From a virus, in IMG/VR virus record IMGVR_UViG_3300027902_000035: a stretch of 17,758 bases of DNA. One strand, given 5' to 3'. The translations under genes were made by a program, and so were the position numbers. A model generated the notes under the pieces. That model ran no database searches. It saw nothing but the letters and a program-made list of their open reading frames with translations, and was not told the DNA's origin. Within the stretch, counting starts at the first letter, position 1. Every line of letters begins with the position of its first letter. Shown here piece after piece: positions 8,309-17,414 of this stretch.

Positions 8309-8503
8309 TTAACTTAAAAAAACGATCAAAGCAATGATTGCTAATAACAAAATAGCTTGAAGACCTACGGTTAAATCGCTAGCTGATTTTTTTCCTTTAC
8401 TGATACAGTCATCACAACGATAATCGTTTTTCGTATAATTTATCCAATTGATTGGTTTCGTTCTTCCACAAGCTGTGCAGGAACAACCATATACTTTAGG
8501 CAT
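8309..8503 (-). CDS. small Zn-ribbon protein with C-terminal transmembrane anchor, 64 aa
   Basis: CSCTAC at residues 7-12 and C30..C33 form CxC/CxxC pairs. The C-terminal LQAILLLAIIALIVFLS is a TM helix, giving a tail-anchored layout. Confidence 0.45.
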   Translation of the reverse strand: MPKVYGCSCTACGRTKPINWINYTKNDYRCDDCISKGKKSASDLTVGLQAILLLAIIALIVFLS

Positions 8504-8518
8504 TTTGAAGTAAACCTC

Positions 8519-9295
8519 TTATAGTTCTGGTAAGTATAGCATTTCTTTATCCCAAGCTCCGAGGATATAGTAATAGAATCCGAACGGTGATTGTACGAGC
8601 AGTATGGGGTCGCGTTTTTCATAATTCTTTTTGAAACTGTCTCTTGTCGCTATGACGAAGAATCTCGGCTTCCTCTCGGTGAGCTCTTGAAACTTTTTAG
8701 CAAATTCACTCATAGTCTCGGATGCGGCCGCAGGGAGTTCAGGTATGAAAATGTCAGCTGATTCCATGACGAGCTCATATTTGTCGAGTAGTTTTTTTAT
8801 TAGACCATCATGAGTGGTATCAAATTGTGCAAAATATTCCCAGAAGATTTTACCGTCGTCGGCTTTTTTATAATATTTCTTTCTGTTTTTTAGTAGTTCA
8901 AGTAATACTTCTGCTTCGTTTCTAGTGTTGTTCTGACCGATCATCGATATTTTGTCTTTCATCATCGTGATTTTTTCGTCTAGTCCTTCGAGTGAGTATT
9001 TTGTCGGCATGCGTTCAAGTTCTTTTAAAACATCAATGGGTTTGACAGTAATTTTGATAGTTTTTGATTTCTTTTGACGAAAATCTTCATCTTCACTACT
9101 ATCTGCTTCGGCATCCATAGCTGCAAATCTTCCAGGTCTAAAATCGACCATGTATCTCGTATTATCATCTTTGAATAGTTCTTCTCCTAATAATGATATT
9201 AAATTTGTATCTGCATGAAAAAATACTGCAGCAGCTGCTTTGATTCTTTTAACCAGAGATTGTTTTCGACGGCTTGCTTTTTTATGCATGTTCAT
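8519..9295 (-). CDS. hypothetical protein, 258 aa, with an acidic D/E/S stretch
   Basis: A strong AGGAGG RBS lies 4 nt upstream of the ATG. The last 30 nt of the gene are duplicated at 10429..10458. Confidence 0.6.
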   Translation of the reverse strand: MNMHKKASRRKQSLVKRIKAAAAVFFHADTNLISLLGEELFKDDNTRYMVDFRPGRFAAMDAEADSSEDEDFRQKKSKTIKITVKPIDVLKELERMPTKYSLEGLDEKITMMKDKISMIGQNNTRNEAEVLLELLKNRKKYYKKADDGKIFWEYFAQFDTTHDGLIKKLLDKYELVMESADIFIPELPAAASETMSEFAKKFQELTERKPRFFVIATRDSFKKNYEKRDPILLVQSPFGFYYYILGAWDKEMLYLPEL

Positions 9296-9314
9296 AAATC
9301 CTCCTGTTTAATAA

Positions 9315-9509
9315 TTAAAAACCTTCCCAGGCTGCAGCCAAATGAGCACGCACTGTCTCTTTGTCTTCTGAGTGCTTCCTGTTGTCACTATTTTCAGGAT
9401 TATCATTTGCCCAGTTGAAGAGGTTTTCGACCTTGTTTACAAAAGATAGTAGTTCTTTTTCAGATTTGAGTCGTTTAATCAATTCTGTTTTAGTCGTTTT
9501 CAATTTCAT
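9315..9509 (-). CDS. hypothetical protein, 64 aa (MKLKTTKTELIKRLKSEKELL...)
   Basis: The track ORF 9315..9560 begins at a TTG inside the upstream gene. An internal ATG at 9509 has a GGGAGG RBS, and its start overlaps the stop of gene 9509..9928 (TAATG). Confidence 0.5.
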   Translation of the reverse strand: MKLKTTKTELIKRLKSEKELLSFVNKVENLFNWANDNPENSDNRKHSEDKETVRAHLAAAWEGF

Positions 9510-9928
9510 TATGATCCTCCCTTCGTCATTGTGAAATCTAATAAATCGTATAAAAAGCAAATCTCTGCTTTTACGGCAAGATATAATTGACGATATCGTT
9601 CTGCAGTCATTATCGTATATTCAGTGCTAAAAGGATGACTGAGTTTAGAAGCGACTTTACTCCAAGGATTCTTTTGAGAATTGCATGATGATTTATTACC
9701 GAACTTAGTGATGGGACAGCTGGCACAATTAGTCGTACGATACTTGACGATAGGAGTATGTATAAGACATAATGGACAAGCTTTCCAATCAATTTCGATA
9801 TTGTACCATTCGTCTACAGGTATTTTTGCAGCGTAGTATAACATGACTAATTGTATATTTTGCCACCAATGTTCGATGCTTTCTTCTATGGCTTTAATGT
9901 TTTGTTGTTTTGTAATAGGTGAAGTCAT
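9509..9928 (-). CDS. Cys-rich HWWQNIQL-motif family protein, paralog A, 139 aa
   Basis: It shares about 55-60% identity (by eye) with the product of 10878..11303. The shared blocks are KAIEESIEHWWQNIQL, WKACPLC, CASCPIT, NPWSKVA and ICFLYDLLDF. It has CPLC...C..CP Cys pairs. Confidence 0.6.
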   Translation of the reverse strand: MTSPITKQQNIKAIEESIEHWWQNIQLVMLYYAAKIPVDEWYNIEIDWKACPLCLIHTPIVKYRTTNCASCPITKFGNKSSCNSQKNPWSKVASKLSHPFSTEYTIMTAERYRQLYLAVKAEICFLYDLLDFTMTKGGS

Positions 9929-10131
9929 AAATTCTCTTTAGTAAATGGTGTCGTCGTGTCAAAGTACCATAAATCAGCGCCACATGCATCTTTTGTTTTA
10001 CTATGTAACACTTGCATTTCTACAGAGAGTACATAATGGATATTGTCGTCCAAATATACGTCTCCTTCTTCTTCCTTAGATCGTGCAGCGCATACGATAG
10101 TTTTTCTGTCTTTACGAATACGGATAGCCAT
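9925..10131 (-). CDS. hypothetical protein, 68 aa
   Basis: ATGA overlap with the upstream gene at 9925-9928 and a 1-bp gap to the downstream gene. Confidence 0.4.
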   Translation of the reverse strand: MAIRIRKDRKTIVCAARSKEEEGDVYLDDNIHYVLSVEMQVLHSKTKDACGADLWYFDTTTPFTKENL

Positions 10132-10132
10132 G

Positions 10133-10426
10133 TCATACTCTTTTCATTTCGTCGACTTCGTACTTAGATAGTTTTTTTAATTTTTGAGCAATGATTTTTT
10201 GGCGTGTTTTGAATTCTTTGGGAGTTTCAACGTGTTGGATAGATTTTAATTCTGGAATTTCACCGCCAAAGACGGGATCGAGTTTGAAGTATCTGAAACC
10301 GTTTCTGATAGTACATTTTCTTTTGCAGGAATAATGATCAGGTTTATCTAGACTTATAGTAAAAGAACGACAGTTGTAGCAGCAACGGTACGAGATATTA
10401 ACTAGATTTTGTTTTATAGTTTTCAT
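10133..10426 (-). CDS. Cys-rich hypothetical protein, 97 aa (CCYNC...C...C)
   Basis: ORF from the track. The ATG immediately follows the 30-bp duplicated fragment. No SD. Confidence 0.4.
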   Translation of the reverse strand: MKTIKQNLVNISYRCCYNCRSFTISLDKPDHYSCKRKCTIRNGFRYFKLDPVFGGEIPELKSIQHVETPKEFKTRQKIIAQKLKKLSKYEVDEMKRV

Positions 10427-10428
10427 TT

Positions 10429-10458
10429 TTATAGTTCTGGTAAATATAGCATTTCTTT
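10429..10458. repeat. 30-bp duplicated fragment (29 of 30 identical to 8519..8548), a fossil of the 3' end of the 258-aa gene
   Basis: Plus-strand ttatagttctggtaaatatagcatttcttt matches ttatagttctggtaagtatagcatttcttt at 8519-8548. On the minus strand it encodes KEMLYLPEL-stop, but here it is intergenic. Flanks on both sides diverge. Confidence 0.6.
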
Positions 10459-10472
10459 TTCACAGACAATCA

Positions 10473-10838
10473 TTATTTATCTGCTTCTGCAGTATTACCT
10501 GCTATTTCTTTTTTCATCTCATCGTCTAAAACAACTTCGCAATCAAATTGTTCTGAATTTTCATCATAATAAATAAGTGAATAACCATCATATGAGTCTG
10601 AATAACCCATTCCATTATGATACCATCCTTCTTGTACTAAACTCCAATAGGGTCCTACATAGTTATCGCCGCCACCACGACCGTTCGGATAAGACTTTGC
10701 TAATATTTCGCAAGCGACGATGTAATTTCTGAGTTCATCTGTTTCATCTACTAGGGTATCTCTTAAGTTCATTAAAAATGAATATCGTCTCGTGGAAGTC
10801 ATCGGCGTCACCTTCCATAGTTCTAATAGTGAGCTCAT
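10473..10838 (-). CDS. hypothetical protein, 121 aa (or 109 aa from ATG 10802)
   Basis: The first ATG at 10838 has no SD. The internal ATG at 10802 (MTSTRRY) is preceded by GGAAGGTGA with 5-nt spacing. It occupies the slot equivalent to 9315..9509 in the duplicated block but is unrelated in sequence. Confidence 0.45.
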   Translation of the reverse strand: MSSLLELWKVTPMTSTRRYSFLMNLRDTLVDETDELRNYIVACEILAKSYPNGRGGGDNYVGPYWSLVQEGWYHNGMGYSDSYDGYSLIYYDENSEQFDCEVVLDDEMKKEIAGNTAEADK

Positions 10839-10877
10839 ATAAATTTTTTTTCAATTCTAATTTTTTAGGCTTTTTTA

Positions 10878-11303
10878 TTATTTCCATGATTTTTCTTTTT
10901 GGATTCTCTTGATGATAGTTATTTTTTTTACGAAGTCTAGTAAGTCGTATAGGAAACATATTTCATTTTTCATGGCAAGATATAATTGATTATATTGTTG
11001 TATAGTTATAGGAAAGTAAGGAAAAGAGCTAAGTTCATCAGCTACTTTAGACCAGGGATTAGTCGAAGAGTCGCACATGCTGTTAAACTCGGTGATAGGG
11101 CAAATGCTGCAGGTAGTATGATGTTCCTTGTTAGTGTACAGGTGACATAATGGGCAAGTTTTCCAGCTTATTTCAATGTCGTGCCATTCGTGTCGTGGTA
11201 TTTTTGCCATGTAGTATAGCATAGTTAGTTGAATATTTTGCCACCAATGTTCGATGCTTTTTTCGATAGCCTTGACGTTTTGTTTTAGTGTGAGCCTGTT
11301 CAT
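10878..11303 (-). CDS. Cys-rich HWWQNIQL-motif family protein, paralog B, 141 aa
   Basis: Same evidence as paralog A. The conserved C-terminus (ggcaagatataattga at the DNA level) is also shared. Confidence 0.6.
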   Translation of the reverse strand: MNRLTLKQNVKAIEKSIEHWWQNIQLTMLYYMAKIPRHEWHDIEISWKTCPLCHLYTNKEHHTTCSICPITEFNSMCDSSTNPWSKVADELSSFPYFPITIQQYNQLYLAMKNEICFLYDLLDFVKKITIIKRIQKEKSWK

Positions 11304-11542
11304 ATTTTTCTGTCATGATTGTTAAGGTTATTTTTGTATTGGTCTTTTGCGACTTGTTGAGAACGGTCAATAAGATTAAATCTTTCTTTCGATAATTCAG
11401 TTAAGGGTATCGTTGGATTTTTGGGTATATCATATAGTGGCATCTCATATTTTTTTAAAGGAATACCAATCTTTATTAAATAATCAATAAAAGATGAAGG
11501 AACCGTTATTGTAAAAAATTTATATTTAAATTGTTTTTTCAT
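11300..11542 (-). CDS. hypothetical protein, 80 aa
   Basis: ATGA overlap at both ends (11300-11303 and 11539-11542). Confidence 0.4.
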   Translation of the reverse strand: MKKQFKYKFFTITVPSSFIDYLIKIGIPLKKYEMPLYDIPKNPTIPLTELSKERFNLIDRSQQVAKDQYKNNLNNHDRKI

Positions 11543-11868
11543 ATTCTACGCTGACTGCAAATTTTATCTGTACATTTTCCACTATGTTGAGAGACGCAAT
11601 TAGAGAAACACGTTTCATTTAACTTCTGTTTGATTTCTTTCATTTTTTTCTTTAGCATTTTAGAGTGTTTTGATTTGAAGACCATTGGAGTTAGCATAGG
11701 AGATTTTGTCTTCTTGAGATGTATCATGATGTCTGGAGAAAGTGAGAATCCGATCATGTCCTTTATTTCATATTCTTGTTTACCACAGAAGATCTGTATT
11801 TGTGCTTTTTTCCTGTCTTTTGAGTCTACTTCTTTGGTGAGGCAATCGATCAATTTTTTTACATTCAT
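11539..11868 (-). CDS. hypothetical basic protein, 109 aa, with a C-terminal Cys cluster (CFSNC...C..C)
   Basis: An AAGGA lies upstream. Coupled to the downstream gene. Confidence 0.45.
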   Translation of the reverse strand: MNVKKLIDCLTKEVDSKDRKKAQIQIFCGKQEYEIKDMIGFSLSPDIMIHLKKTKSPMLTPMVFKSKHSKMLKKKMKEIKQKLNETCFSNCVSQHSGKCTDKICSQRRI

Positions 11869-11881
11869 AAGTTTGATGTCC

Positions 11882-12196
11882 TTATTTTACTTTGAATTTT
11901 TTGAATAAGTTTATATTTGCGAGGACTTTATCGATGTCTTTTTGAATGTCCCACCAACAGATCATGAACATCCGTGAGTCCTTCGTCACTCCGAGGATGA
12001 CAGGGTCGAGCTTGAAATTGGGTGAGTAAGATCTTCGTTCGATCTTGAATTGAGGATGCGCAATCGTAAAGGCTTCAATATCGGAATGCTCGAACATAAT
12101 AACAAATTGTCTCTGAGTGACATCGTAAGTAATTTTGATGTCTTTCTTTATCTTATTACTATATTCAAGGATATTTAAAATACGTTTTTTTGCCAT
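11882..12196 (-). CDS. hypothetical protein, 104 aa
   Basis: AGGA 7 nt upstream. It starts about 20 bp downstream of the tRNA-like gene. Confidence 0.5.
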   Translation of the reverse strand: MAKKRILNILEYSNKIKKDIKITYDVTQRQFVIMFEHSDIEAFTIAHPQFKIERRSYSPNFKLDPVILGVTKDSRMFMICWWDIQKDIDKVLANINLFKKFKVK

Positions 12197-12215
12197 GAAG
12201 AATCCTGTGAAAATA

Positions 12216-12294
12216 TCAGCAGGGATGGATTCGAACCACCGACCCCTCTCATGTTTTGAGAGTGCTCTATTTGACCCAGCTGAGCTACCTGCTG
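12216..12294 (-). tRNA. tRNA-like gene with a tRNA-Val-like backbone and atypical anticodon loop (apparent anticodon AAC, no U33); CCA not encoded
   Basis: Minus-strand reading: CAGCAGG TA GCTC AGCTGGGTCAAATA GAGC A CTCTC AAAACAT GAGAG GGGTC GGTGG TTCGAAT CCATC CCTGCTG A. The acceptor stem is a perfect 7 bp (C1:G72). D-stem and T-arm (GGTTCGAATCC) are canonical. The D-loop is 14 nt. Body similarity to the E. coli tRNA-Val sequence recalled from memory (TAGCTCAGCTGGG...GGGTCGGCGGTTCGATCC) is high. Confidence 0.55.
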
Positions 12295-12326
12295 TTAATA
12301 GATATAATCATGTAAAATAGCGTAGA

Positions 12327-12689
12327 CTATGTATTTTTAAACTTATTTGCTAATGTCTCTAATGTCTCCCAAAGTCCTTTCAAATATTCTTCGTATTTGC
12401 TGTCGACAATTGCGTTACACACGTCTAAATCTTTTTTATCAATGCCGACTAATGTATTAGCTAGTAAATTTTTAAAGAGGTCTCTAGCCGGAATCATCAG
12501 GTCGTTAGTCACAAATTCACGCGTTTTCTCTCTGTCTGAGTTGAAAGCTGTTTTAGATAATAAGTAGATGCTCAGTGCACTGCCGATAATAGAAAACATC
12601 TTGGTGAAAAACTCTTCAGTTCCTTCCGATAATTTTCCTCTAAATTCATCATCAAGTAATTCATCATTGAGAGCATCGATGAGGTTCAT
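12327..12689 (-). CDS. hypothetical protein, 120 aa
   Basis: A strong AAGGAG RBS lies 7 nt upstream of ATG 12689. Confidence 0.55.
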   Translation of the reverse strand: MNLIDALNDELLDDEFRGKLSEGTEEFFTKMFSIIGSALSIYLLSKTAFNSDREKTREFVTNDLMIPARDLFKNLLANTLVGIDKKDLDVCNAIVDSKYEEYLKGLWETLETLANKFKNT

Positions 12690-12891
12690 AAATGTCTCCT
12701 TTTAAATTTTCTTTTTGCTGTTGATCTTTTTGTTCAAAATATTCACAGATACATTTCATTTTAGCCGCAGTTATACTCATAGTCTCATGTAATTTTTGTA
12801 CACGCTCTAATGGAGCAATTTTTTTTGGTATTTTACTAACTATACCTATCAACAATTCAATACGTAAAATTCGATCTTCTAATGATAACAT
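12664..12891 (-). CDS. hypothetical protein, 75 aa
   Basis: Its ATG directly abuts the upstream stop (TAAATG). Its 3' end overlaps the next gene's RBS by 26 nt. Confidence 0.4.
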   Translation of the reverse strand: MLSLEDRILRIELLIGIVSKIPKKIAPLERVQKLHETMSITAAKMKCICEYFEQKDQQQKENLKGDIYEPHRCSQ

Positions 12892-13569
12892 TTATTTTTT
12901 CCAAGGCATTATGACTATTTCTTCTTTAGAGTCAGTGTCGTCCTTTTCTACAGCCGTTTCTCTCTCTTCTTCTGTTAGATCACGGAACAATTTACCATCA
13001 GACTTTCTAATATCAATCTCATTCTCGACTTCAAGATTGTCTTCATCATGCCAACGTTTAAGTCCGAAAAAACCCTCATCAATGTCACTTAATAATTTAT
13101 AAGGAAGCACGTCTGGCTCAGAAAAATCAAAGATCAGAATCTCATATGGACATGCCCAAACGCATCCTTCAACTGCTAATAATTTTCCTGAGGGTGATGG
13201 AGTCGCTGTTATCCAACAAAAGCCAGATCCTTTGAAGCCTTCTTCAGGGAAGTAAAATTTATACGTACCATCTGTGAGATTAACGATAGAGTAACCTTGA
13301 TAATCTTCTCCACACAGCATATATTTTTTGCCATTTGGATGATTTATCCACGTATGCCAAAAAGTAGAATAATTTCTTTTGATGTCTACAACGATATGAT
13401 TATCTGAAATTTGTGTTACAATACCTTGCGTATAATTCCAGCATCCTTTTTTTGTCTCATGACTTGAGACAGTCAGACGAAAGCCTTCAAATTCAGAAGA
13501 CTCAATCACCTTGCCTGATTTTTTGAAATATTTTTTTAGATGTTTTCGCTGTTTTGCGTATTTATCCAT
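12892..13569 (-). CDS. hypothetical protein, 225 aa, W/Y/G-rich with an acidic C-terminal tail
   Basis: AAAGGTGAT RBS. TGATATG junction with the upstream gene. Confidence 0.55.
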   Translation of the reverse strand: MDKYAKQRKHLKKYFKKSGKVIESSEFEGFRLTVSSHETKKGCWNYTQGIVTQISDNHIVVDIKRNYSTFWHTWINHPNGKKYMLCGEDYQGYSIVNLTDGTYKFYFPEEGFKGSGFCWITATPSPSGKLLAVEGCVWACPYEILIFDFSEPDVLPYKLLSDIDEGFFGLKRWHDEDNLEVENEIDIRKSDGKLFRDLTEEERETAVEKDDTDSKEEIVIMPWKK

Positions 13570-13570
13570 A

Positions 13571-13909
13571 TCACCTTTCAGACGGTTTTTTGATTATCGG
13601 AACGTAAGAAAATGAGATTGGGTATGGTATTCTTTTAATTGTAAACACAGCGGAGTCTTTTAGTTTAAGAGCTAACACTGGGACAGAATATTTAAGTAGT
13701 GGCATCAATCCCGTCCCTAATAGTAAGAAGCCGACGATTCTTTCTTCGACTTGATCTGACGGTGTGATGAATTCTATTCGAGATATAGCTATAGGTCTAG
13801 AAGTTTGAGCATTTAATATCAGACACACATCGCCGCTTTTTAAATATTCACGATCTGGTATGTCAAATACATTAGGAAAATCAAAAAGTCTGTCTAATGG
13901 AATGTCCAT
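13571..13909 (-). CDS. hypothetical protein, 112 aa
   Basis: ORF from the track. 12-bp gap to the upstream gene. Confidence 0.45.
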   Translation of the reverse strand: MDIPLDRLFDFPNVFDIPDREYLKSGDVCLILNAQTSRPIAISRIEFITPSDQVEERIVGFLLLGTGLMPLLKYSVPVLALKLKDSAVFTIKRIPYPISFSYVPIIKKPSER

Positions 13910-13921
13910 AGTGTCTTGTAG

Positions 13922-14344
13922 TCATTTTTTTAGTCGTGGATGTTGTTTGGTCAAGACTGTATTTAACTTTCTTTTGAGAGATCGGATTTGTTTACTGCGA
14001 TAGATAGCTTCGGCAACAGTATAACGTATATTATACTCATTTGAGTCCTCGTCCGGCGACCATGCCCCGCCGTGCGTGAAAAGCCAGTTTATGAAATCAT
14101 TACATTCATTAAGTAGGATTATATCTGCATTACGCGGAAGTTTGAGTTTTTGATTTTTTAACTTGAATTTTCCTAGTTGTGCAAGATGCCATGAAGCTAC
14201 AAGATACCACGTGTGTTTTTGGAGTTTAGTGAGTTCATCAAACGTATAGGGATGACGATCGAGGCCTTGTTTTTTACACCATATCGCTTGTTGTGGTTGT
14301 ACTACTCCGAATATCTTACGAGCTATCGACCGTATTTTCGTCAT
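13922..14344 (-). CDS. hypothetical protein, about 140 aa (ATG at 14344; the track start 14362 is GTG)
   Basis: Its ATG overlaps the stop of the Zn-finger gene (TGATG), a classic coupling junction. Confidence 0.5.
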   Translation of the reverse strand: MTKIRSIARKIFGVVQPQQAIWCKKQGLDRHPYTFDELTKLQKHTWYLVASWHLAQLGKFKLKNQKLKLPRNADIILLNECNDFINWLFTHGGAWSPDEDSNEYNIRYTVAEAIYRSKQIRSLKRKLNTVLTKQHPRLKK

Positions 14345-14529
14345 CAAGAGCAGCTTTTGCACAGGTCTTTACCTAGTTTACTCCAGCATGTGTGACACAT
14401 GGGTTTGTCACATTTTCTACACTCAAATATGTGGCCGGCACATAATCCAGCACCGCATTCAACACAGTGTGTCTTAATAGGAGCATTAACAGATTGTGGA
14501 CAAGAAATACAGTGTTCTATTTTTTCCAT
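14344..14529 (-). CDS. small multi-zinc-finger protein, 61 aa, with 11 Cys in CxxC pairs
   Basis: Sequence: MEKIEHCISCPQ...CVECGAGLCAGHIFECRKCDKPMCHTCWSK...CKSC. It has five CxxC pairs plus His, an interleaved treble-clef/B-box/RING-like arrangement. Confidence 0.55.
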   Translation of the reverse strand: MEKIEHCISCPQSVNAPIKTHCVECGAGLCAGHIFECRKCDKPMCHTCWSKLGKDLCKSCS

Positions 14530-14546
14530 TTTAATACCTCTAAAAT

Positions 14547-14717
14547 TTAATATGGAGTAATGGCACAGAACGCAGTGCTATGCATGCTACTACCGCATAT
14601 CTCACACGGCGGTTGTTTTGTTCTTCTACACATTTCGTTACAAGCATCTAATCTTTTATTGTCTGCTTCAAGTTCACGAATCAGATTTTCGGAAAGTGGA
14701 ACTTCTGTACTTGTCAT
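14547..14717 (-). CDS. small Cys-rich protein, about 56 aa (the track ORF extends to 14816, giving 89 aa)
   Basis: The C-terminal CNEMC-x8-CEIC-x8-C is Zn-ribbon-like. The internal ATG at 14717 has AAAGGG upstream and sits 27 bp past the upstream stop. The longer form would overlap the upstream gene by 73 bp. Confidence 0.4.
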   Translation of the reverse strand: MTSTEVPLSENLIRELEADNKRLDACNEMCRRTKQPPCEICGSSMHSTAFCAITPY

Positions 14718-17278: not shown

Positions 17279-17414
17279 AAATTATCTTTCAAACAAATTA
17301 TTTTTTATTTTAAACATACATAGAAATCTTAGTAATCTTCATAATTTATAATCACAAAAATAATCATAGACCTATTAATCTTTTTATAATCCTGATTTAT
17401 AAATAGGATAAAAT

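Follow-up and report, generated by a model that had tools for sequence, protein, structure and literature searches.

Two histories of probably very different age superimposed at a Cys-rich paralog locus of an uncultivated huge phage

The 17,758-bp IMG/VR record IMGVR_UViG_3300027902_000035, a complete contig of a Joint Genome Institute (JGI) metagenome that is referred to here as the window, carries between positions 8519 and 11303 two related genes for cysteine-rich (Cys-rich) proteins, famA and famB, together with a short repeat of the 3' end of a neighbouring gene that encodes a protein of 258 amino acids (aa). An initial annotation, made from the sequence alone, took this arrangement as the trace of one ancient duplication of a block consisting of the 258-aa gene, a small gene and the family gene, with the second copy of the 258-aa gene later deleted down to its last 10 codons. 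The locus raises the question of whether the paralogs and the repeat record one event. The window has a GC content of ~35%, and almost every plausible gene lies on the minus strand, closely packed; the few recognizable ones encode an HD-domain protein, an 821-aa major vault protein (MVP) homolog and a member of the family phrog_8562. In common blocks, the window is 89-99% identical to the 416,029-bp IMG/VR contig IMGVR_UViG_3300027896_005002 (= Ga0209777_10000009; the 416-kb relative), which on sequence comparison indicates that it comes from an uncultivated huge phage. Neither the region nor the 258-aa protein or its family nor any member of the Cys-rich family had a match among 50,697 GenBank phage records (megablast, tblastn). 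In the following, L001 is the fetched locus of the 416-kb relative, and other L numbers denote further fetched metagenomic loci.

The best explanation, to which we assign as a whole a probability of roughly 0.6, is that two separate histories are superimposed in a hyperplastic accessory-gene stretch of a huge phage (8.1-12.3 kb): an old pair of paralogs and a later truncation of a copy of the 258-aa gene. The elements concerned are the following.

9509..9928, minus strand: famA, 139 aa, a member of an unannotated Cys-rich helical family (SIEHW...CPLC...CxxCP...C...FLxxLL)
10878..11303, minus strand: famB, 141 aa, paralog of famA, at the 3' edge of a 3.9-kb segment deleted in the 416-kb relative
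8519..9295, minus strand: the 258-aa gene, of a large unannotated huge-phage family with an almost invariant C-terminus (...RDPILLxQSPFGFYxxILGAWDxEMLxLxEL*)
8519..8554, minus strand: repeat copy 1, the last 11 codons and the stop of the 258-aa gene
10429..10473, minus strand: a mini open reading frame (mini-ORF) of 14 codons, MIVCEKEMLYLPEL*, which contains repeat copy 2 (10429-10464)

The relationship of the two Cys-rich proteins was borne out by pairwise alignment: BLASTP found 79 identical residues out of 129 (61%, E 1e-53), above the 25% below which the initial annotation would have dropped the claim. The two are each other's closest relatives, with at most 40% identity to the other 39 family representatives from a library of 1.84 billion proteins or to the members at the fetched loci. 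Their genes are 65.4% identical in nucleotide sequence, the proportion of differing synonymous sites (pS) is saturated at 0.72, and the synonymous divergence (dS) is ~2.4 with a ratio of nonsynonymous to synonymous divergence (dN/dS) of 0.13. By region, the corresponding ratio of proportions (pN/pS) was 0.26 in the N-helix, 0.46 in the central loops and 0.33 in the C-helix, values that are coarse because pS is saturated. These ratios indicate that both genes are kept under purifying selection, and the earlier description of a "diversifying" array is not upheld. The famA protein matches the family hidden Markov model (HMM) at 3e-39 and shares 93% aa identity (pS 0.26) with its ortholog in the 416-kb relative; its AlphaFold2 (AF2) model, with a predicted local distance difference test score (pLDDT) of 86.6, shows a bundle of helices, of which the two terminal ones are long. 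The ortholog (L001 9992..10534) has 180 aa in total, including a 45-aa additional Cys-rich C-terminal extension, and famA in the window ends at the Shine-Dalgarno sequence (SD) and ATG of the next gene, small64. In the proposed explanation, famA and famB would descend from an old duplication within this phage lineage, with both copies retained under purifying selection.

The repeat itself was confirmed. Positions 8519-8548 recur at 10429-10458 with one mismatch (29/30; 0 expected from 200 shuffles), and the match can be extended to 36 nt (8519-8554 against 10429-10464), of which 33 (92%) are identical. The second copy, which had been described as intergenic, is the 3' part of the 14-codon ORF, the coding strand of which reads GATAAA TAATG ATT GTC TGT GAA AAA GAA ATG CTA TAT TTA CCA GAA CTA TAA AA ATG; its ATG overlaps the stop codon of the upstream phrog_8562 gene (TAATG), and its stop lies 2 nt ahead of the ATG of a 97-aa gene. 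At 10429..10473, a six-frame HMM scan matched only profile positions 254-265 of the 258-aa family; it detected no further fragment of this family, neither elsewhere in the window nor across the fetched sequence of the 416-kb relative. The window has two copies of the 30-mer and the 416-kb relative has one, and searches of IMG/VR and of the JGI metagenome collection gave no others; a dispersed repeat was rejected on these counts, and the homology of the 30-mer to the 3' end of the 258-aa gene stands. A terminator, an operator or a structured RNA at this site was likewise rejected, as the folding z-scores ranged from -1.3 to +0.9 with the shared part unpaired. No promoter or terminator site was called in the shared 30-mer, and the only match of an Rfam scan of the window was a tRNA away from it. 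With no hairpin and no promoter or terminator match, the 36 nt showed no sign of constraint at the nucleotide level. The conservation of 10429..10458 in related genomes had been suggested as a test of function; the remnant is indeed identical in the 416-kb relative (L001 8920-8971), but this is not informative, since the flanks are also 97% identical.

The 258-aa family comprises more than 650 homologs with 43-68% identity, none with a Pfam domain, and occurs at 72 IMG/VR loci on contigs of up to 675 kb. Its most conserved part is the C-terminal motif given above, and the window protein ends in LGAWDKEMLYLPEL. A homolog at L003, with 52% identity overall, has the same final 13 residues (GAWDKEMLYLPEL), yet differs at six synonymous positions in the last 10 codons. 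The constraint on the C-terminus therefore acts on the protein and not on the DNA, and the two window copies are therefore nearly identical through common ancestry rather than through convergence on a DNA site. The model of the 258-aa protein (pLDDT 73.7) had no informative structural neighbour.

Several further observations concern this family. Its genes are split into two overlapping ORFs at L046 (3899-4655) and at L049-L051 (3860-4629; 138+124 aa and 160+116 aa), which are frameshifts or sequencing errors. The 258-aa profile retrieved 70-odd further IMG/VR loci, none of which has a member of the Cys-rich family within 4 kb of the 258-aa gene, and on the metagenomic contig L083 a Cys-rich family member lies 4 kb downstream of a 258-aa homolog. 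A gene for an AAA+ ATPase, absent from the window, stands downstream of the 258-aa homolog in three contigs: immediately at L003 (1374-2495), after one small gene at L082 (4721-6418), and at L083 (10541-12124) ~4.4 kb or some 12 genes further on, directly after the Cys-rich family member.

Whether the paralogs and the repeat can share one origin was assessed from their divergence. The remnant and the 3' end of the 258-aa gene differ by one synonymous change in 10 codons, which corresponds to a pS of ~0.18 (1 of ~5.7 synonymous sites, counted by hand). At the 65.4% identity of the paralogs, the probability of at least 29 matches in 30 is 5e-5 and that of at least 33 in 36 is 3e-4; even at 78%, the identity of the best-conserved block of the paralogs, the repeat has a probability of 0.005-0.03. 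The saturated paralogs and the 29/30 remnant must therefore differ greatly in age, unless the remnant is constrained as nucleotide sequence. Since a neutral relic as old as the split of famA and famB would be unrecognizable, the truncation of the 258-aa gene is far younger. Both sampled phages carry the remnant, and from this comparison the truncation appears to be roughly as old as their divergence.

These figures disfavour the single ancient duplication that had been proposed. In that account, a tandem block of family gene, small gene and 258-aa gene was duplicated, most of the second 258-aa gene was deleted and the middle cassette was replaced. The two units are indeed colinear (family gene, one gene, 258-aa 3' end) and directly adjacent, and a weak 21/30 match on the family diagonal falls inside the 258-aa gene. 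A self dot plot of 8.2-11.7 kb, as had been recommended, showed the family diagonals (offsets 1378, 1390 and 1399), the repeat diagonal (offset 1910) and otherwise this one weak match. An all-against-all BLASTP of the window ORFs found no related pair besides famA and famB, so that the two blocks share the family gene plus 36 nt from the 258-aa gene, and their middle and downstream genes are unrelated. The middle-slot genes at 9315..9509 and 10473..10838 are unrelated, as had been stated, although the latter is not a full gene but the 3' part of a longer one. The lack of any further 258-aa fragment also speaks against the block duplication, and gene order changes freely in comparison with the 416-kb relative, so that colinearity weighs little. 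Together with the clash of ages (pS 0.72 against a remnant with 97% identity), these points make a single block duplication distinctly unlikely. A relation between the two Cys-rich genes that each follow one repeat copy, of 64 and 97 aa, was also considered and was not supported by the all-against-all BLASTP.

The comparison with the 416-kb relative involves the following neighbouring features.

10473..10887, minus strand: phrog_8562-family gene, interrupted by a single additional base (GGG 10754-10756) in comparison with the 416-kb contig
10133..10426, minus strand: 97-aa Cys-rich gene, directly downstream of the remnant, without an SD
9925..10131, minus strand: 68-aa ORFan, flanked by the 97-aa gene and famA; missing in the 416-kb relative
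9315..9509, minus strand: small64, 64 aa, downstream of famA in the window and upstream of famA in the 416-kb relative
8309..8503, minus strand: Cys-rich gene of 64 aa that follows the intact 258-aa gene and has its own SD (GAGG); missing in the 416-kb relative
10838..14708, minus strand: 3.9-kb segment (3,871 bp) with 11 ORFs, a tRNA and a promoter-like motif, famB being last; deleted in the 416-kb relative as judged from the BLAST blocks

In the direction of transcription, the window order is famB, phrog_8562 gene, mini-ORF, 97-aa gene, 68-aa gene, famA, small64, 258-aa gene and 64-aa Cys-rich gene. The order in the relative is phrog_8562 gene, mini-ORF, 97-aa gene (with another C-terminus), a 172-aa gene, small64, famA (with the 45-aa Cys-rich extension) and a 73-aa gene. 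The relative thus has additional 172-aa and 73-aa genes and is without 10838-14708 and the 258-aa, 64-aa Cys-rich and 68-aa genes. One junction could be followed to the nucleotide. At L001 8551-8559 (window 14709-14717 and 10837), the window gene that begins at 14717 has contributed its SD and its opening three codons (MTS), which continue in frame into ELIIRT of the phrog_8562 gene; microhomology at the joint is no more than 1 nt. Since the junction is an in-frame fusion and the window retains the native N-terminus of the phrog_8562 protein, it is the relative that has lost the 3.9 kb; as this deletion includes famB, the state with two paralogs is ancestral. The resolved junction (L001 8559) points to illegitimate recombination. 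The small64 gene (9315..9509) is 88.8% identical to L001 9776..9970; divergence is visibly greater in the 5' part, the 3' part being near-identical, and the homology begins 1 nt before the ATG and ends 1 nt after the stop. The region thus shows gene-sized insertions and deletions, replacement and reordering of small ORFans between flanks that are about 95% or more identical, as is characteristic of hyperplastic regions, and gene-sized deletions, replacements and transpositions would accumulate across the 8.1-12.3 kb stretch.

The phrog_8562 gene itself lies in the window in two pieces, 10744..10887 and 10473..10838 (minus strand). When repaired, its 137-aa protein matches profile positions 5-135 with 45.6 bits, compared with positions 42-135 and 30.2 bits for the 121-aa ORF as annotated and positions 19-135 and 38.4 bits for the version of the 416-kb relative. 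The frameshift at GGG 10754-10756 reflects either a genuine pseudogene or a mistake in the assembly.

The same comparison bears on a history without any duplication of the 258-aa gene, which we regard as possible but improbable. In it, the gene would originally have stood between the phrog_8562 and 97-aa genes and been deleted before the two phages split, and 8519..9295 together with the 64-aa Cys-rich gene would later have been re-acquired or transposed in the window lineage through recombination with a close relative. The 416-kb relative carries the remnant and has no intact member of the 258-aa family detectable by two near-invariant C-terminal motifs, although this contig may be incomplete. 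The block of small64, 258-aa gene and 64-aa Cys-rich gene is specific to the window and absent from the relative, the mosaic identity of small64 is consistent with an internal crossover, and the genes that follow 258-aa homologs vary greatly among other huge phages, all of which would suit re-acquisition. However, the donor would have to match the last 36 nt almost exactly, and the closest database homolog has just 67% aa identity. Moreover, loss of the intact copy in the lineage of the 416-kb relative explains the data equally well. The superimposition of two histories, which we prefer, would instead have two copies of the 258-aa gene coexist for a time; much later than the famA/famB duplication and near the split of the sampled phages, the copy ending at 10429 would have been reduced to its last ~12 codons.

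In this preferred explanation, the upstream junction at the phrog_8562 stop codon would have created the TAATG, so that the leftover became a 14-codon ORF. Coupling by termination and reinitiation, where a stop and a start codon overlap or abut (ATGA, TAATG), is known from phage and bacterial operons. The arrangement here is similar, with TAATG at the start of the mini-ORF, TAA-AA-ATG at its end and a 97-aa gene without an SD (anti-SD duplex dG +0.2 kcal/mol, 2 nt from the mini-ORF stop), but differs from the usual case in that the relay ORF would be the leftover of another gene. Window genes whose start overlaps the preceding stop or follows it by at most 2 nt mostly have no SD (dG ~0 to -4), and most genes after longer gaps have one. 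The mini-ORF has the geometry of a relay ORF, since its start overlaps the preceding stop, its own stop adjoins the following ATG and no SD serves the gene behind it. The 97-aa gene would accordingly depend on ribosomes that terminate at the mini-ORF stop. We infer that a ribosome relay by termination-reinitiation, from the phrog_8562 gene to the 97-aa gene, would be the simplest functional reading of the mini-ORF and may account for its persistence.

Alternatively, the 14-codon ORF or the 36 nt could themselves be the selected product, either as a micropeptide that mimics the KEMLYLPEL tail and competes for its partner or as a cis-acting DNA or RNA site. The retained residues belong to the most conserved part of the family of more than 650 members, and the ORF, complete with start and stop codons, is retained by a phage in which no full gene was detected. 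In addition, start-less C-terminal fragments of the 258-aa family, of 33 codons at L077 (3998-4099) and 40 codons at L078 (4001-4123), occur on two other phage contigs showing no intact copy. On the other hand, the invariant W248 is changed to C and D249 to E in the mini-ORF, the fragments at L077 and L078 have no start codons, and the latter is substituted at near-invariant positions. As the search motifs were C-terminal, only 3' fragments could be detected, which biases this recurrence. Neither RNA structure (z -1.3 to +0.9) nor a promoter or terminator match nor an additional copy in the 416 kb was found. That the mini-ORF or the 36 nt is itself the selected product is very unlikely, and we give equally little credit to a micropeptide acting as decoy or competitor for the partner of a tail conserved across hundreds of huge phages; if it were true, the C-terminal fragments in other huge phages would be independent reductions of a gene to a peptide.

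The family to which famA and famB belong was analyzed with a profile built from both paralogs, which retrieved 40 representative clusters among the 1.84 billion proteins and gave the consensus SIEHWxxNL..LxLNxLS...CPLC...CxxCPI...C..TPW..V...EIxFLxSLL. In a word-indexed protein search, famA as query returned famA itself only and the family profile returned nine proteins. Across 42 family members, C51, C54 and C71 never vary, and conservation is 90% or higher at C68, C82, H20 and W21, a pattern that makes the zinc binding earlier suggested from conserved Cys pairs plausible. The family had not been recognized in the initial annotation, and it proved unannotated: neither famA nor famB matched Pfam-A, PHROGs v4, NCBIfam 20, PADLOC 2 or the PDB sequences, no curated family was matched by more than one of 41-42 members, and none of the PADLOC models of defence and anti-defence matched the family. 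An anti-defence or host-takeover role, which the initial annotation considered typical of such arrays, thus finds no support in these searches, although they do not refute it. A motif scan of 185,579 species-representative genomes found no member. The contigs that carry members are phage-like and 12-213 kb long; small ORFan genes surround the members, one of which is next to an S24 repressor and RecT, and on present sequence evidence the family is found only on phage-like metagenomic contigs.

Arrays of several copies occur at L008 (three), L093 (four in tandem) and L090 (two), which makes paralog expansion a feature of the Cys-rich family as such. At L093 (777-2279), the four copies are arranged head to tail with 32-43% identity and overlapping or abutting stops and starts. 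Two of the three paralogs at L008 (1850-2200 and 5848-6225) are 52% identical overall and have identical C-terminal 23 residues (GVYEQGVEVITKQIEFLKSLRNN), which suggests recombination or conversion between them. A DNA-mimic or strongly acidic nature was considered for the family and rejected, as isoelectric points range from 4.2 to 9.7. Like the small Cys4 zinc proteins (zinc ribbons, DksA/TraR fingers and ZAS anti-sigma factors), the family is small and helical, with two CxxC pairs and conserved His and Cys residues; unlike them, it matches no zinc-finger model of Pfam, NCBIfam or PHROG, its Cys spacing is variable and its fold matches are generic bundles. The ZAS anti-sigma motif, HxxxCxxC, is absent from the family. 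Our best guess is a small binding protein stabilized by zinc, with a variable central loop. Proteins of ~110-140 aa with a predicted Cys4(+Cys/His) metal site would hold this loop between two conserved long helices by means of a structural zinc ion and may serve as small binding or regulatory proteins from an early or accessory operon.

The rearrangements at the locus resemble those known from other phages in several respects. In T4-type phages, hyperplastic regions are shaped by modular shuffling mediated by promoter early stem-loop (PeSL) elements (Arbiol et al., 2010, PMC2839356; Comeau et al., 2014, PMC4122927). As there, close large phages differ here by insertion, deletion, replacement and reordering of clustered non-essential ORFans, and a phage promoter-like motif recurs in the window region. 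Unlike in PeSL shuffling, no cassette of promoter plus stem-loop was found at the window breakpoints, the motif copies lie elsewhere, and microhomology at the resolved junction (L001 8559) does not exceed 1 nt. Terminator-like sites were not enriched (1 against 2.5 expected). Lambdoid phages and mycobacteriophages reportedly owe their mosaicism to illegitimate recombination, which is said to leave gene remnants at module boundaries. In line with this, two short and highly similar segments, the remnant of 36 nt and small64 in its 3' half, stand in unrelated flanks, and the breakpoints fall at or near gene borders. What differs is the setting in a huge phage of ~400 kb and the conversion of the remnant into a mini-ORF coupled by its start and stop.

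Several points weigh against the superimposition of two histories as proposed here. Just two related genomes were compared, and these are 97% identical around the remnant; the putative relay is deduced from gene geometry. The data are a metagenome assembly, so that the frameshift upstream may be an assembly error; if real, it would cut the flow of ribosomes into the proposed relay. Gene conversion from the intact 258-aa gene could keep an old remnant young-looking. The structure and fold searches with the Cys-rich family returned generic helical bundles alone. Finally, the 21/30 match, an AEAD-coding stretch at 9099-9129 in the interior of the 258-aa gene against 10477-10507 at the 3' end of the phrog_8562 gene, lies on the family diagonal with offset 1378 and could trace an older block duplication; it is no stronger than six background matches (p ~0.01, an estimate) and is probably due to chance.

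The transcriptional context of the locus is given by two further kinds of features.

490-512, 8105-8127, 12303-12325 and 17347-17369, minus strand: copies of a promoter-like motif
12216..12294, minus strand: tRNA gene (Rfam, 40.9 bits; not called by ARAGORN), directly downstream of a promoter-like motif and within the segment deleted in the 416-kb relative

The motif, CTAYG-N4-T-N5-TGATTATA, is of the extended -10 type. All four copies are on the minus strand and intergenic, where 0.03 would be expected, and two orthologous copies occur in L001, including the counterpart of 8105..8127. Judged from its position, the copy at 12303..12325 is the probable start of the transcription unit that holds the paralogs and the remnant, and that at 8105..8127 the probable start of the next unit.

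Away from the locus, the 821-aa ORF at 2062..4527 (minus strand) is the MVP homolog mentioned above (Pfam MVP_shoulder 6e-21, Vault_3 1.7e-9). Its residues 461-687 are colinear with residues 460-693 of eukaryotic MVP (E 3e-12), it has no PHROG match, and its DNA is 93% conserved in the 416-kb relative. A homolog of a vault-shell protein in a huge phage may be of greater interest than the paralogs and the remnant.

Taken together, the analysis corrects what appeared to be the scar of a single duplication to two events of very different age in a region that rearranges gene by gene. As such, the paralogs and the remnant represent ordinary genome plasticity of huge phages and leave the current understanding unchanged. 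Two families that curated libraries do not cover deserve curation and functional work: the Cys4 helical family, which is restricted to phages and repeatedly expands into arrays, and the family of ~250-aa proteins with an invariant C-terminal tail on huge-phage contigs of up to 675 kb.

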